The notes beneath the pieces are model-generated. The model was given only the letters and a program-made list of their open reading frames with translations. It had not been told where the DNA came from and did not search any database. Made by a program: the position numbers and the translations under genes. Of a stretch of DNA of 2,272 nucleotides, positions 1 to 2,272 are shown piece by piece. Origin of the DNA: Escherichia coli (lineage in GTDB: Bacteria > Pseudomonadota > Gammaproteobacteria > Enterobacterales > Enterobacteriaceae); the NCBI RefSeq assembly GCF_003334255.1, contig NZ_QOWU01000137.1; one strand, given 5' to 3'. Each line of letters starts with the position of its first letter. The stretch's first letter is position 1.

Positions 1-4
1 GAGT

Positions 5-51
5 AGAGTAAGAGGCAGGGCGTAGTCGGACTATTTCCCTGCCTCTCCTCC
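5..51 (-). ncRNA. Group II intron domain VI with bulged branch-point adenosine (minus-strand A at window position 9)
   Basis: Minus strand GGAGAGGCAGGG ... CCCUGCCUCUUACUCU forms a long stem of 10 contiguous Watson-Crick pairs plus extensions. A single unpaired A on the 3' strand sits 7-8 nt from the window edge, matching the usual branch point to 3' splice site distance. Confidence 0.7.
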
Positions 52-53
52 CC

Positions 54-87
54 GAACCGGACGTGCACCTTTCAGCGCATCCGGCTC
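54..87 (-). ncRNA. Group II intron domain V (catalytic core hairpin)
   Basis: Minus strand reads GAGCCGGAUGCGCUGAAAGGUGCACGUCCGGUUC, 34 nt. It matches the domain V consensus: AGC catalytic triad near the 5' end, 9-bp lower stem including a G-U pair, 2-nt AC bulge on the 3' strand, 4-bp upper stem, and a UGAAAG loop. Differences from the common consensus keep base pairing intact. Confidence 0.92.
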
Positions 88-92
88 TCCAT

Positions 93-1616
93 TTAAATGC
101 TGGCGAACGCCATTGCCACTTCTGTAAAGCGCGATGTATACGTGTTTCTGGTCTCCGTCCTCAGATAGGGATTACCTTCGGGTAGCCGCCAGCGGAACAG
201 CTTCTTGCCTTGCCCCACCAACCGGTACAGTATTTCGCCGCTGAGCTTGCCGTGATTGGTTTTACCAAATAAAACCCACGTTTTGCTCTGACCCGGTTTC
301 GGTGATTTACACCACCACCTCATCAGGGAAGCGATACCTGTACGGTATTTGCGGGCCAGCCAGTGAGCCAGCTTCCAGAACACGACACGGTCGATATAAC
401 TGAAGACTTTGGCCTTAAAATCAACGAACTGATAGAACATGGCCCAGCCTTTCAGTTTTCGGTTGAGTTGTTCAGCCATATCGACTTTGCTTTCACTGTA
501 GTTGCCTGATAACAGTGCTGTCAGCGATGCGGCGAAGTTTCTGGCTTTCTCCTGCGGGATCGTTGAGACCACTCGCATCTCGCCATAACGACTGCGTTTG
601 CGAATGATCCTGTGCCCCAGAAAGATAAAGCCGTCATTAACATGGGTGATTTTAGTCTTATCCATGTTCAGCCTGAGTTTCAGACTGCCTTCGAGCACAC
701 CCCGACACTCCTCCCTGATGGCTTCCGCCTGTGCTTTGGTGCCTTTGACGATGAGGACAAAATCATCGGCATAGCGGCAGTACGCCACCGCGGGTTTCCA
801 CTGCCAGTTTTCTCTGACCGCCGTACTTCGGCCCCGTTGGATACTGTTATTCCAGTACCACCGATCTTTTCTGGCTTTCCCGCTCAGGTAGCGCTCATGC
901 AGGTATTGATCGAACTCATTCAGCATGATGTTCGATAATAGCGGCGATATAACACCGCCCTGTGGCACACCTTCACTGGCCGCCCGAAAGAGACCGACAT
1001 CGATATGTCCCGCCTTGATGGTTTTCCACAGCAGAGTCATGAAACGTGCGTCACTGATCCTGCGGCGTACAGCCTTCATCAGCAGTCGATGATGTACGGT
1101 GTCGAAGTAACTGGACAGGTCGCCTTCAATCACCCAGCGTCCCCGGGTTTCACCACAGTCTGTGAGCTGTAATTTCACCGTGCGGATCGCGTGGTGGACA
1201 CTGCGCTCAGGCCGGAAGCCATATGAGAGCGTATGAAAATCACTCTCCCATATCGGCTCCATCGCCATCAGCATGGCCCGCTGAACAATACGATCCCGCA
1301 ACGCGGGGATACCCAGTGGTCGCAGTTTGCCGTTGCTTTTAGGGATGTAAACCCGTCTGGCGGGCAAGGGCTGGTAGTGGCCTGAGAGTAATTCATCCCT
1401 GAGGATTTGCAGCTCAACAGCCAGTCTGGCCTGTAGCATTGTTTTGTTCACGCCATCAACGCCGGGGGTATGGGCCCCCTTTGATGAAAGCGTGATCCGC
1501 GCCGCTTCAGCCAGCCATTCTGGTTGTGTTATCAGACGCAGCAGCCGTTGAATCCGTAGGGACGGATCGGTGGCTGCCCATGTGGCAAGCTTGCGTTGCA
1601 TTTCGCTGATTATCAA
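93..1616 (-). CDS. Group II intron-encoded protein: reverse transcriptase / maturase, apparently without an endonuclease domain
   Basis: 507-aa ORF with the group II RT motifs in order: TPGVDGV (aa 50-56), PLGIP (100-104), SYGFRPERS (131-139), DLSSYFDTV (166-174), PQGGVISPLLSNIML (218-232), YADD (282-285, codons at 762..773), KITHVNDGFIFLG (322-334). A maturase/thumb-like region follows with GWAMFYQF (390-397). Stop codon TAA at 93..95. The C-terminal 70 aa contain one Cys and no HNH/zinc-finger pattern. The track start at 1616 is a TTG codon; the first ATG is 5 codons downstream (1599..1601). Confidence 0.93.
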   Translation of the reverse strand: MIISEMQRKLATWAATDPSLRIQRLLRLITQPEWLAEAARITLSSKGAHTPGVDGVNKTMLQARLAVELQILRDELLSGHYQPLPARRVYIPKSNGKLRPLGIPALRDRIVQRAMLMAMEPIWESDFHTLSYGFRPERSVHHAIRTVKLQLTDCGETRGRWVIEGDLSSYFDTVHHRLLMKAVRRRISDARFMTLLWKTIKAGHIDVGLFRAASEGVPQGGVISPLLSNIMLNEFDQYLHERYLSGKARKDRWYWNNSIQRGRSTAVRENWQWKPAVAYCRYADDFVLIVKGTKAQAEAIREECRGVLEGSLKLRLNMDKTKITHVNDGFIFLGHRIIRKRSRYGEMRVVSTIPQEKARNFAASLTALLSGNYSESKVDMAEQLNRKLKGWAMFYQFVDFKAKVFSYIDRVVFWKLAHWLARKYRTGIASLMRWWCKSPKPGQSKTWVLFGKTNHGKLSGEILYRLVGQGKKLFRWRLPEGNPYLRTETRNTYTSRFTEVAMAFASI

Positions 1617-2272
1617 AGGTCTTCACCTCGTTAGGTCAGTTAATTCACGTCGCAAACACATTCAAACTGCTTCCCTTCGCCATGTAATGGGCTTTCCCCA
1701 TCGCGGACTACTACGGAAGCTCCGCCAGCCAGCGCGTCATCGGAGCCATGCCCCCTTAACATCCGTCGCTGACCTTCCCCGGTTTACCTGCCTGGACTCA
1801 GGCATACTGAGGAGGCTGCCCGTCGCACTCTTTATCCTTGCTTGCCGCAAGTTGGCAGAAGTCAGCAACGCAAGTGTGATAGACGCTGCTGCCCCGGTGT
1901 TTCGCATACATGTCAAAACACCTTCGACCGGCAGTGCTTACGTATCACTGCCAGTTCCTCCTGCACGGCCTGTCAGATCACGTAGGCCGTGGTGACGTTT
2001 TCAACCCACAGAGGCGGATTAACGGGTTCATGTTCTTCAGCCTTTCAGTACTTAACCTTGAGGATCATCTCGGCTTAGTGATCTCGCCTCAATCCCCGTT
2101 GTCAGCGGGTTACATCACCCTGCGGGCATGCCGCAGGTCACTGCCGCTCAGGTTCTCCACCGTCACACCCGGTGGGATTGTTGGGTTTCTCATCGTGAGT
2201 TACCGGTTCAATATTCCAGACAGACTCGCGGTTCATTTAAGCATCCATGCCCGCCCTGAACTCCGGGCACAC
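1617..2272 (-). ncRNA. Group II intron ribozyme 5' portion (domains I-III and the 5' part of domain IV)
   Basis: About 650 nt of non-coding, hairpin-rich sequence between the GUGUG 5' end and the IEP start. This is the usual size and position for domains I-III. Individual domains and exon-binding sites were not mapped because no exon sequence is available. Confidence 0.75.
1624..1629 (-). promoter_or_regulatory. Putative Shine-Dalgarno sequence (GAGGUG) for the IEP
   Basis: Minus strand reads CGAGGTGAAGACCT-TTG: GAGGTG lies 7 nt upstream of the TTG at 1616 and about 22 nt upstream of the first in-frame ATG. The spacing favours the TTG start. Confidence 0.45.

Follow-up and report, generated by a model that had tools for sequence, protein, structure and literature searches.

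The question raised by this locus is where translation of its IEP begins. The window, i.e. the whole 2,272 nt stretch of Escherichia coli DNA analysed herein, carries on its minus strand a longest ORF of 507 aa running from 1616 to 93, in which a TTG at position 1616 is followed in the same frame by an ATG at position 1601. The sequence-only reading had proposed that the IEP probably starts at the TTG, and that automated annotation may select the ATG and so shorten the N-terminus. The coordinates and the TTG/Shine–Dalgarno (SD) layout on which this was based are correct, and the prediction regarding annotation holds, as both the PGAP ltrA product (WP_001189111.1, 502 aa) and K-12 ykfC start at position 1601. 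Public records are divided, with the identical protein present in both a 507-aa TTG form and a 502-aa form, and with homologue clusters split approximately half and half between the two N-terminal lengths. As judged from comparison of related loci, the IEP is most likely translated from the UUG rather than from the RefSeq ATG. The product would then most likely be a 507-aa protein beginning fMet-Ile-Ile-Ser-Glu-Met, in which the ATG at 1601 probably specifies an internal Met. The features on which this is based are collected in Table 1.

Table 1. Coordinates of the features discussed, numbered along the window
Feature	Position	Strand	Remarks
Complete group II intron assigned to E.c.I4	3..2272	(-)	Bacterial ORF class A
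Domains V and VI of the intron ribozyme	3..89	(-)	Rfam Intron_gpII, RF00029
IEP ORF (RT/maturase, no endonuclease domain)	93..1616	(-)	507 aa from TTG; stop codon 95..93
TTG, codon 1, proposed true initiation codon	1614..1616	(-)	TTG at 78/80 genome loci
ATG, codon 6, RefSeq/PGAP start, probably an internal Met	1599..1601	(-)	502-aa product
Shine–Dalgarno GAGGUGA	1623..1629	(-)	6 nt upstream of UUG
Near-invariant 21-nt stretch AGGUGAAGACCUUUGAUAAUC	1608..1628	(-)	Contains SD, hairpin, start codon, codons 2–3 and UGAUAA internal loop
DIVa-like stem–loop, four helices	1589..1657	(-)	Covariation; 5′ edge of domain IV
Helix P1	1657-1651 with 1595-1589	(-)	3′ strand in codons 8–10
Helix P2	1648-1646 with 1600-1598	(-)	Pairs U and G of AUG (1601)
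Helix P3	1639-1636 with 1609-1606	(-)	CUGA with UCAG (codons 3–4)
P4 apical hairpin GAGGU-GAAG-ACCUU	1616..1629	(-)	SD is the 5′ arm; first U of UUG forms the closing G.U pair
Unpaired 3′ internal loop UGAUAA	1615..1610	(-)	

With regard to the identity of the element, the window appears to be the well-known E. coli mobile intron E.c.I4, an assignment made from its features rather than against a database reference sequence. The sequence opens with GTGTG (2272..2268), which conforms to the GUGYG boundary consensus of intron 5′ ends, and closes with a match to RF00029 at 89..3 that covers the entire model (64.9 bits, gathering score 40, E = 6e-12). Precomputed Pfam records for cluster representatives 96–98 % identical to the query list PF00078 (RT) and PF08388 (maturase/X) alone, with no HNH domain, indicating that the IEP has no D/En domain. 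The best PDB matches are LtrA, the GsI-IIC RT and other group II RTs, with LtrA being the closest solved homologue (E = 2e-52). Across E. coli, 100 % identical copies interrupt IS3-family transposase genes, fragments of which flank them, and approximately 1,900 of 5,426 complete genomes harbour full-length E.c.I4; ykfC of K-12 is a truncated copy, 100 % identical over the probe used. E.c.I4 (= IntA; S.f.I1 in Shigella) is likewise a full-length intron encoding an RT-X IEP without an endonuclease domain, and shares with the window its insertion in IS3-family transposase genes, its multi-copy presence in E. coli and Shigella, and a truncated K-12 copy (PMC3522654, PMC3552965). According to PMC3522654 it homes into IS3-like elements, has 15 copies in E. 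coli IAI39, and is represented in MG1655 by a fragment; PMC3552965 assigns it to class A, one of the En-less classes. No difference from E.c.I4 was detected, the likeness being one of description and features. In 2013, class A was stated to comprise only three members, 99 % identical to each other, whereas the relatives gathered here share 65–96 % amino acid identity and derive from many Proteobacteria, as well as from MAGs assigned to other phyla.

On the minus strand, positions 1629..1599 read GAGGTG-AAGACCT-TTG-ATA-ATC-AGC-GAA-ATG, with GAGGTG at 1629..1624 and the 7-nt spacer AAGACCT at 1623..1617 immediately preceding the TTG. The frame is closed on the upstream side by an in-frame TGA (1625..1623) made up of the last three bases of the SD motif, and therefore the TTG and the ATG are the sole candidate starts. 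The 3′ end of E. coli 16S rRNA carries the anti-SD CUCCACU, the 7-nt complement of GAGGUGA. Measured from this motif, the TTG lies at 6 nt, within the 5–9 nt expected of a genuine UUG-initiated gene, and the ATG lies at 21 nt, bearing out the earlier remark that it is poorly spaced; no SD-like motif directly precedes the ATG in the local sequence. UUG is counted amongst the canonical starts, initiating at 10–100 % of AUG (bioRxiv 10.1101/063800). Considered by itself, the combination of SD and TTG could have arisen by chance. The window has a single GAGGTGA where 0.29 would be expected, 52 of 200 shuffled versions contain one or more, and an in-frame NTG would appear in the seven codons separating the stop from the ATG with a probability of approximately 28 % (1-(61/64)^7). 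The pattern is shown to be real by its conservation across loci that were chosen by protein similarity only.

This conservation was assessed in 80 genome loci so chosen (65–96 % amino acid identity), and in 161 unique related introns, 116 of which possess intact ORFs. Codon 1 is a canonical start in 114 of the 116 (113 TTG and one ATG), and in a metagenome scan in which codon 1 was left free, TTG was found in 93 of 103 unique regions. Clear non-start codons at this position (TCG, TTT) are confined to broken copies with premature stops. The ATG at codon 6 is retained in 105 intact copies, and is replaced by CTG, CTA, ATA, CAG or ACG in the other 11, all of which keep a canonical start at codon 1; this is the decisive observation in favour of the TTG. 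These 11 represent at least three or four separate lineages, as gauged by inspection of flanking sequence with no tree built. Where genome loci without the ATG were checked, the next in-frame NTG is Leu codon 10 (L034) or lies at codons 25–26, and a protein begun there would lose its N-terminal extension. In L034 itself, codon 1 has become ATG and codon 6 is ATA. Clusters of proteins that lack the internal Met are abundant, e.g. P0053 (MIISEQQ, 289 members) and P0074 (MIIRELQ, 60 members). An in-frame stop lies two codons upstream of codon 1 at all 80 loci, and no copy examined has a stop between TTG and ATG.

Alignment of the homologues demonstrates that the five upstream codons are conserved, as M/L-I-I-[S/R/K/G]-E, down to 65 % amino acid identity; a pattern in which homologues consistently start at the internal Met, with upstream codons unconserved, was not seen, and the proposal of a TTG start made in the sequence-only reading is thereby upheld. 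The SD is similarly maintained, being GAGGTG in 61 and AAGGTG in 13 of 79 loci, with AGGTGA invariant or nearly so. Of the 80 genome loci, 73 carry the 21-mer AGGTGAAGACCTTTGATAATC without a mismatch, and 21 consecutive columns of the alignment display at least 97 % identity; no other 20-nt window within ±200 nt is as conserved (0.975 versus approximately 0.7 in the flanks). The wobble positions of codons 2–3 never vary. The conservation of IISE is by itself no proof of translation, because the same nucleotides are also fixed by RNA structure, and that of the TTG and codons 2–3 could stem from RNA structure or from protein binding instead of use as a start.

The RNA surrounding the start is predicted to form a stem–loop of four helices at the 5′ edge of domain IV. 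Its stability is modest (MFE -18.3 kcal/mol, z = -1.94), and the structural case thus rests on covariation. In a MAFFT alignment 88.8 % of stem–loop cells are paired, and in a CM-refined alignment 93.9 %, with 9 of 19 pairs changed on both sides; in the CM-refined controls, slid versions reach at most 44.6 % paired, and none of 500 shuffles attains the observed values. The apical hairpin P4 is present in the MFE structure of 61 of 62 unique sequences, with 99 % of its cells paired, one compensatory pair (G–C to A–U, in L034), and G.U to A–U changes. Substitutions in codon 4 are matched by changes in the facing strand of P3, yielding CCGA/UCGG in L044, UCGA/UCGA in L046 and UUGA/UCAA in L034. 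The UGAUAA internal loop and the GAAG loop are invariant beyond what base pairing explains. In some lineages (L070, L037) the 5′ strand of P1 might instead form a local hairpin, GUUUGC-NNN-GCAAAC, upstream of the SD; this is disfavoured, as the MFE pairs that strand with codons 8–10 in 58 of 62 sequences and covariation agrees, with a switch between the two forms being possible. No Rfam family covers the start region, the matches in the window being limited to D5/D6 and a chance match to CRISPR-DR8 at 2086..2119 (E = 0.87).

Two other possibilities were considered and rejected. Occlusion of the start by long-range pairing of CCUUUGAU (1619..1612) with AUCAAAGG (1485..1478) is ruled out by the wobble positions of the Ser-Ser-Lys-Gly codons, which vary freely amongst homologues. 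An internal sigma-70 promoter as the cause of TTGATA conservation was also sought, but both strands between 1450 and 1800 are devoid of promoter-like sites.

It is unlikely, given these observations, that both codons serve as starts, producing isoforms of 507 and 502 aa, or that the AUG acts as a backup. Such an arrangement would accommodate the finding that each of the 116 intact ORFs has a codon-1 start (canonical or CTG), ATG-6, or both, and in particular that L031 and L112, the two intact ORFs in which codon 1 is CTG, retain the ATG and could depend on it; AUG is, moreover, the intrinsically stronger start codon (bioRxiv 10.1101/063800). However, CTG can itself initiate at 1–2 % of AUG (bioRxiv 10.1101/063800), no SD is suitably spaced for the AUG, two bases of which (U and G) take part in helix P2, and loss of this codon from 11 intact ORFs in several lineages marks it as dispensable. 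Less probable still is that RefSeq is right, such that the ATG is the sole start and TTG-ATA-ATC-AGC-GAA is untranslated, being kept solely as a DIVa structure or IEP-binding site. The invariance of codons 1–3, even at wobble positions, would fit such a role, PGAP does pick the ATG, and the covariation of P3 at codon 4 implies that RNA constraint explains much of the apparent peptide conservation. Nevertheless, this reading leaves the 11 intact full-length ORFs without a start closer than codon 10 or codons 25–26 where checked, and sits poorly with the transfer of ATG to codon 1 in L034, with the uniformly open frame between the two codons, and with an SD spacing that is correct for the TTG alone. 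That the in-frame TTG and GAGG motif upstream of a real ATG are incidental and functionless is barely credible, the chance frequencies given above notwithstanding, as a 21-nt block that is near-invariant across introns with proteins only 65–70 % identical, and more conserved than any other stretch within ±200 nt, effectively refutes it on comparative grounds.

Initiation at the UUG also agrees with the alignment to LtrA, which begins at query residue 23 and LtrA residue 24, so that the N-terminal lengths of the two proteins correspond only if the TTG is the start. An AlphaFold2 model of the 507-aa protein gives pLDDT values below 50 for residues 1–23 (33–39 at the N-terminus) and is uninformative as to whether residues 1–5 extend the first helix. 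Literature searches on ykfC and the group II intron, E.c.I4, and UUG-initiated IEPs yielded the identity and class of the element but no experimental N-terminus.

The arrangement resembles that of Ll.LtrB from Lactococcus lactis (IIA/ML). The Ll.LtrB DIVa carries the SD and an AUG loop and anchors the IEP, which contacts it through its N-terminal extension; translation is autoregulated by IEP binding (PMC6144810, citing Singh et al. 2002). Like the stem–loop of E.c.I4, this DIVa is situated at the 5′ edge of domain IV and harbours both the SD and the IEP start codon, the latter in an unpaired loop in each case, and LtrA equals the TTG-initiated E.c.I4 IEP in N-terminal length. The two elements are likened by architecture, not by sequence similarity, and they differ in intron and ORF class, in the use of UUG rather than AUG, in the enclosure of the E.c.I4 SD within a 5-bp apical hairpin with a GAAG loop, and in its invariant UGAUAA internal loop.

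By analogy with this system, which belongs to a different intron class, the stem–loop at 1657..1589 would act as a high-affinity anchor for the IEP; sequence-specific binding has indirect support from the invariant UGAUAA and GAAG loops. IEP synthesis would be held low by the weak UUG, and further by the partly sequestered SD. Bound IEP could then occlude the ribosome-binding site, resulting in autoregulation. Pairing of the SD in a hairpin by itself disfavours initiation, and to that extent counts against the UUG as start. The earlier suggestion that IEP translation could be limited by a non-ATG start is plausible. It is possible, although offered here only tentatively, that the 21-nt block constitutes a class A-specific IEP anchor and translational operator in which the UUG is structurally required, the SD hairpin being closed by the first U of this codon in a pair that would be lost with AUG in its place. 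If so, low IEP dosage and the shut-off of synthesis at RNP assembly would be hard-wired in a single RNA element, conserved across the whole class; no description of a class A operator or anchor of this kind was found in the literature searched. The findings extend the Ll.LtrB arrangement, in which the IEP ribosome-binding site is placed within a conserved stem–loop, to the understudied class A, and add to it a weak start codon that is strongly conserved. Selection for low IEP dosage would fit this pattern, which introduces no new principle.

In practical terms, the outcome is an annotation fix for a known element and not a new kind of biology. WP_001189111.1 and the ykfC pseudogene model are probably five N-terminal residues short, and the shortened RefSeq protein affects a very common retroelement of E. 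coli and Shigella. The N-terminal region of LtrA contacts the DIVa anchor. The 507-aa form is advised for IEP expression (e.g. in class A gene-targeting tools) or RNP modelling. Some bacterial genes with UUG starts are annotated inconsistently by gene callers, and here also a short (5 aa) N-terminal mismatch is observed between pipelines. Unlike in other inconsistently called UUG genes, however, approximately 98 % of intact family members keep the weak start, and a structured RNA surrounds it, suggesting selection rather than accident.

The minus strand from 1629 to 1599 reads GAGGTG AAGACCT TTG ATA ATC AGC GAA ATG, exactly as claimed by a sequence-only reading that set TTG (1616) at the head of the longest ORF, with GAGGTG 7 nt upstream. 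Its description of the ATG (1601) as poorly spaced from this Shine–Dalgarno-like (SD) motif likewise holds, with 21 nt separating it from GAGGUGA vs 6 nt for the UUG. This heptamer is a 7-nt complement of the 16S anti-SD, and the expected number of GAGGTGA occurrences in the window is 0.29. As an in-frame TGA (1625..1623) falls inside the motif, TTG (codon 1) and ATG (codon 6) are the sole possible starts. The chance expectation of an NTG among the 7 codons between TGA and ATG is ~28 % by arithmetic, and the start-site anatomy by itself is within chance expectation.

Features of the intron and of the stem-loop surrounding the start
Feature	Coordinates	Strand	Sequence or content	Basis
Intron 5′ end	2272	minus	GTGTG	sequence
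Domains V + VI	89..3	minus		Rfam RF00029, 64.9 bits vs gathering score 40
IEP ORF	1616 to 93	minus	507 aa	ORF listing
P1	1657-1651 with 1595-1589	minus	GUUUGCG with CGCAAGC (codons 8-10)	
P2	1648-1646 with 1600-1598	minus	GUG with UGC; takes in U and G of AUG	
P3	1639-1636 with 1609-1606	minus	CUGA with UCAG (codons 3-4)	
P4 apical hairpin	1629-1616	minus	GAGGU-GAAG-ACCUU; 5′ arm is the SD	
Invariant unpaired loop	1615..1610	minus	UGAUAA; remainder of start codon and codon 2	

Related introns were sampled twice. The first sample comprised 80 genome loci, selected solely for protein similarity (65–96 % identity) and drawn from gamma- and alpha-proteobacteria as well as assorted MAGs; it has TTG at codon 1 in 78 cases, with CTG and ATG in one each. 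All 80 carry an in-frame TGA two codons 5′ of codon 1; 72 have ATG at codon 6, the other eight CTG, CAG, ATA or CTA. A metagenome scan leaving codon 1 free (NNN) gave 103 further unique regions, four being unrelated chance matches, with TTG in 93 and ATG, GTG and CTG in one each. Codon 1 is a clear non-start in three metagenome regions (TCG in two, TTT in one), and all three copies have premature stops. Pooling yields 161 unique start regions, 116 with an intact ORF (at least 480 aa). Among these 116, TTG at codon 1 accompanies ATG at codon 6 in 103, 11 have a canonical codon 1 (10 TTG, one ATG) with codon 6 other than ATG, two pair CTG at codon 1 with ATG at codon 6, and none lacks both. Judged from these sequences, the AUG at codon 6 is dispensable. 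For those ATG-less genome loci that were checked, reading on in frame first reaches an NTG at a Leu codon, at position 10 in locus L034 (whose codon 1 is ATG and codon 6 ATA) or at 25–26, and a start at any of these would lose the RT N-terminal extension.

Lengths of the best 120 protein homologues (identity down to about 68 %) fall into two groups, about 507 and about 502 aa, with the longer all starting M/L-I-I-[S/R/K/G]-E. Several are without Met6 (MIISELQ, MIISETQ, MIISEQQ, MIIRELQ, MIISEIQ and LIIGDLQ), the MIISEQQ cluster having 289 members. The N-terminal MIISE, whose conservation had been raised as a check, is indeed retained, with Ile2 and Ile3 invariant in a 27-sequence alignment. 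For LtrA, the Ll.LtrB IEP and closest solved relative, the alignment starts at its residue 24, opposite query residue 23, so that N-terminal lengths agree only under the TTG start. The AlphaFold model gives no usable information on residues 1–23, and no experimental N-terminus was found in the searched literature.

Loss of the codon 6 ATG with the codon 1 start kept, the swap in L034 and the LtrA length match thus support the TTG as principal start, and the argument also draws on SD spacing and on codon 1 having decayed in dead copies alone; this is most likely the main IEP start. Dual initiation, at UUG (1616) and AUG (1601), is far less probable; it would fit the lack of any intact copy without both a codon 1 start (canonical or CTG) and the ATG, and the retention of that ATG in both CTG copies. 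With 11 intact copies lacking it, the ATG (1601) is unlikely to be the sole start, whilst a chance pairing of in-frame TTG and SD-like motif is contradicted by conservation, and so excluded.

The start lies within AGGTGAAGACCTTTGATAATC (1628..1608), which is near nucleotide-invariant, with 21 columns in a row of at least 97 % identity. Within ±200 nt, conservation over 20-nt windows peaks in this block, and its exact 21-mer occurs in 73 of the 80 genome loci. Among these loci, AGGUGAAGACCUUUGAUAAUC (1608..1628, minus) is near-invariant between introns with proteins only 65–70 % identical. The wobble bases of codons 2 (ATA) and 3 (ATC) show no change across the introns compared, AUA being rarely used for Ile in E. 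coli. Due to this wobble-level invariance, MIISE conservation is attributed largely to RNA-level constraint, and is by itself no proof of translation. Neither base pairing nor coding accounts for conservation of the unpaired UGAUAA and GAAG nucleotides.

Domain IV has at its 5′ edge a stem-loop of ~69 nt (1657..1589), defined by folding and covariation, in which P4 closes with a G.U pair whose U is the first base of UUG. MFE folds of 62 unique sequences contain P4 in 61, P3 in 59 and P1 in 58, with P3 and P4 also recovered independently by RNAalifold. In a plain MAFFT alignment 88.8 % of cells are paired, with nine compensatory pairs; covariance-model realignment, its pairing figures biased towards the model by construction, gives 93.9 % vs at most 44.6 % with slid partners, and 0 of 500 shuffles reached the observed values. 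Non-synonymous substitutions are offset on the opposite strand both at codon 4, where Ser becomes Gly, Asp or Asn, and at codon 8, where Arg becomes His, Ser or Cys, examples being L044 (CCGA/UCGG), L046 (UCGA/UCGA) and L034 (UUGA/UCAA). Thermodynamic stability is modest on its own (−18.3 kcal/mol, z=−1.94). The P1 5′ strand GUUUGC can also pair locally with GCAAA(C/U) just 3′ into a small hairpin, displacing codons 8–10 (loci L070, L037 and L026); many lineages conserve both partners (1646..1657 vs 1589..1600), which makes a different fold or a switch conceivable. Long-range pairing of the start region with 1485..1478 was ruled out, since it is not conserved, and no promoter-like site was found around the start region. 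Upstream, a conserved GAAA-tetraloop hairpin, AUGGG-GAAA-GCCCAU (~1687..1701, minus), probably belongs to domain III or to the D3/D4 junction.

In Ll.LtrB, DIVa contains the SD and an AUG loop; it serves as the high-affinity IEP anchor touched by the protein's N-terminal extension, and translation is autoregulated through IEP binding (PMC6144810, citing Singh et al. 2002). By analogy, the stem-loop would be the class A counterpart of DIVa, with the invariant GAAG and UGAUAA as candidate sequence-specific protein contacts. Initiation at the canonical starts AUG, GUG and UUG runs at 10–100 % of the AUG level, with about 3–4 % of genes UUG-started (bioRxiv 10.1101/063800). The analogy suggests that IEP output may be limited by a weak start codon, by P4 partly sequestering the SD and by newly made IEP binding and occluding the site. 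With AUG at codon 1, P4 would lose its closing pair, which may help explain UUG retention.

As had been anticipated, automated annotation picks the ATG, with PGAP starting both ltrA (WP_001189111.1) and ykfC there. The identical protein is also public as a 507-aa form (e.g. a Shigella flexneri record, a MULTISPECIES entry), making the TTG start an existing alternative annotation rather than a discovery; the element, the kind of arrangement and, in some database records, the TTG form are already known. In practice, this amounts to a corrected annotation for a retroelement that is very widespread in E. coli, along with a covariation-supported stem-loop documented for class A introns.

The window itself is a complete group II intron (2272 nt, minus strand). 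Taken whole, it has matches in 2,669 of the 5,426 complete genomes of E. coli, and in 1,874 genomes a single locus covers at least 80 % of its length. The full-length matches listed are 100 % identical to it and inserted in IS3-family transposase genes. This agrees with the published description of E.c.I4 (= IntA), which targets IS629, IS911 and other IS3-like elements, with a fragment in MG1655 (PMC3522654), and is of bacterial ORF class A, among the classes that lack an endonuclease domain (PMC3552965). K-12 has a truncated copy as the pseudogene ykfC; in DH1 and an MG1655 derivative (locus 1700..2791) its IEP is 3′-truncated, cut off beside IS5, and its SD/TTG/ATG region is identical to the window's. 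Other E. coli copies have IS insertions inside (IS5 in NMBU-W12E19, IS421 in strain 90-9281), and that of EC958 lies within an IS-rich island, adjoining the BREX defence gene brxL.

Class A, per its 2013 description, had three members only, with a mutual identity of 99 %. Relatives at 65–96 % aa identity occur in Marinobacter, Shewanella, Photobacterium, Legionella, Rhizobium, Roseibium, Halomonas and other genera, as well as in MAGs labelled Bacteroidetes, Acidimicrobiales, Rhodothermales, Nitrospira and Phycisphaerae, with more than one copy in several genomes. Contigs of 'Citrobacter sp. 18056' and 'Chryseobacterium sp. 18061', from the same project, are identical in the regions compared around the intron start, which points to cross-contamination or a very recent transfer. 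On the plus strand, opposite intron domain I, a weak Rfam match to CRISPR-DR8 at 2086..2119 (19.1 bits vs gathering 39, E=0.87) is almost certainly chance. Finally, the IEP stop codon (95..93) precedes the Rfam D5/D6 match by only a few nt, placing the 3′ half of domain IV within the coding sequence of the IEP C-terminus.
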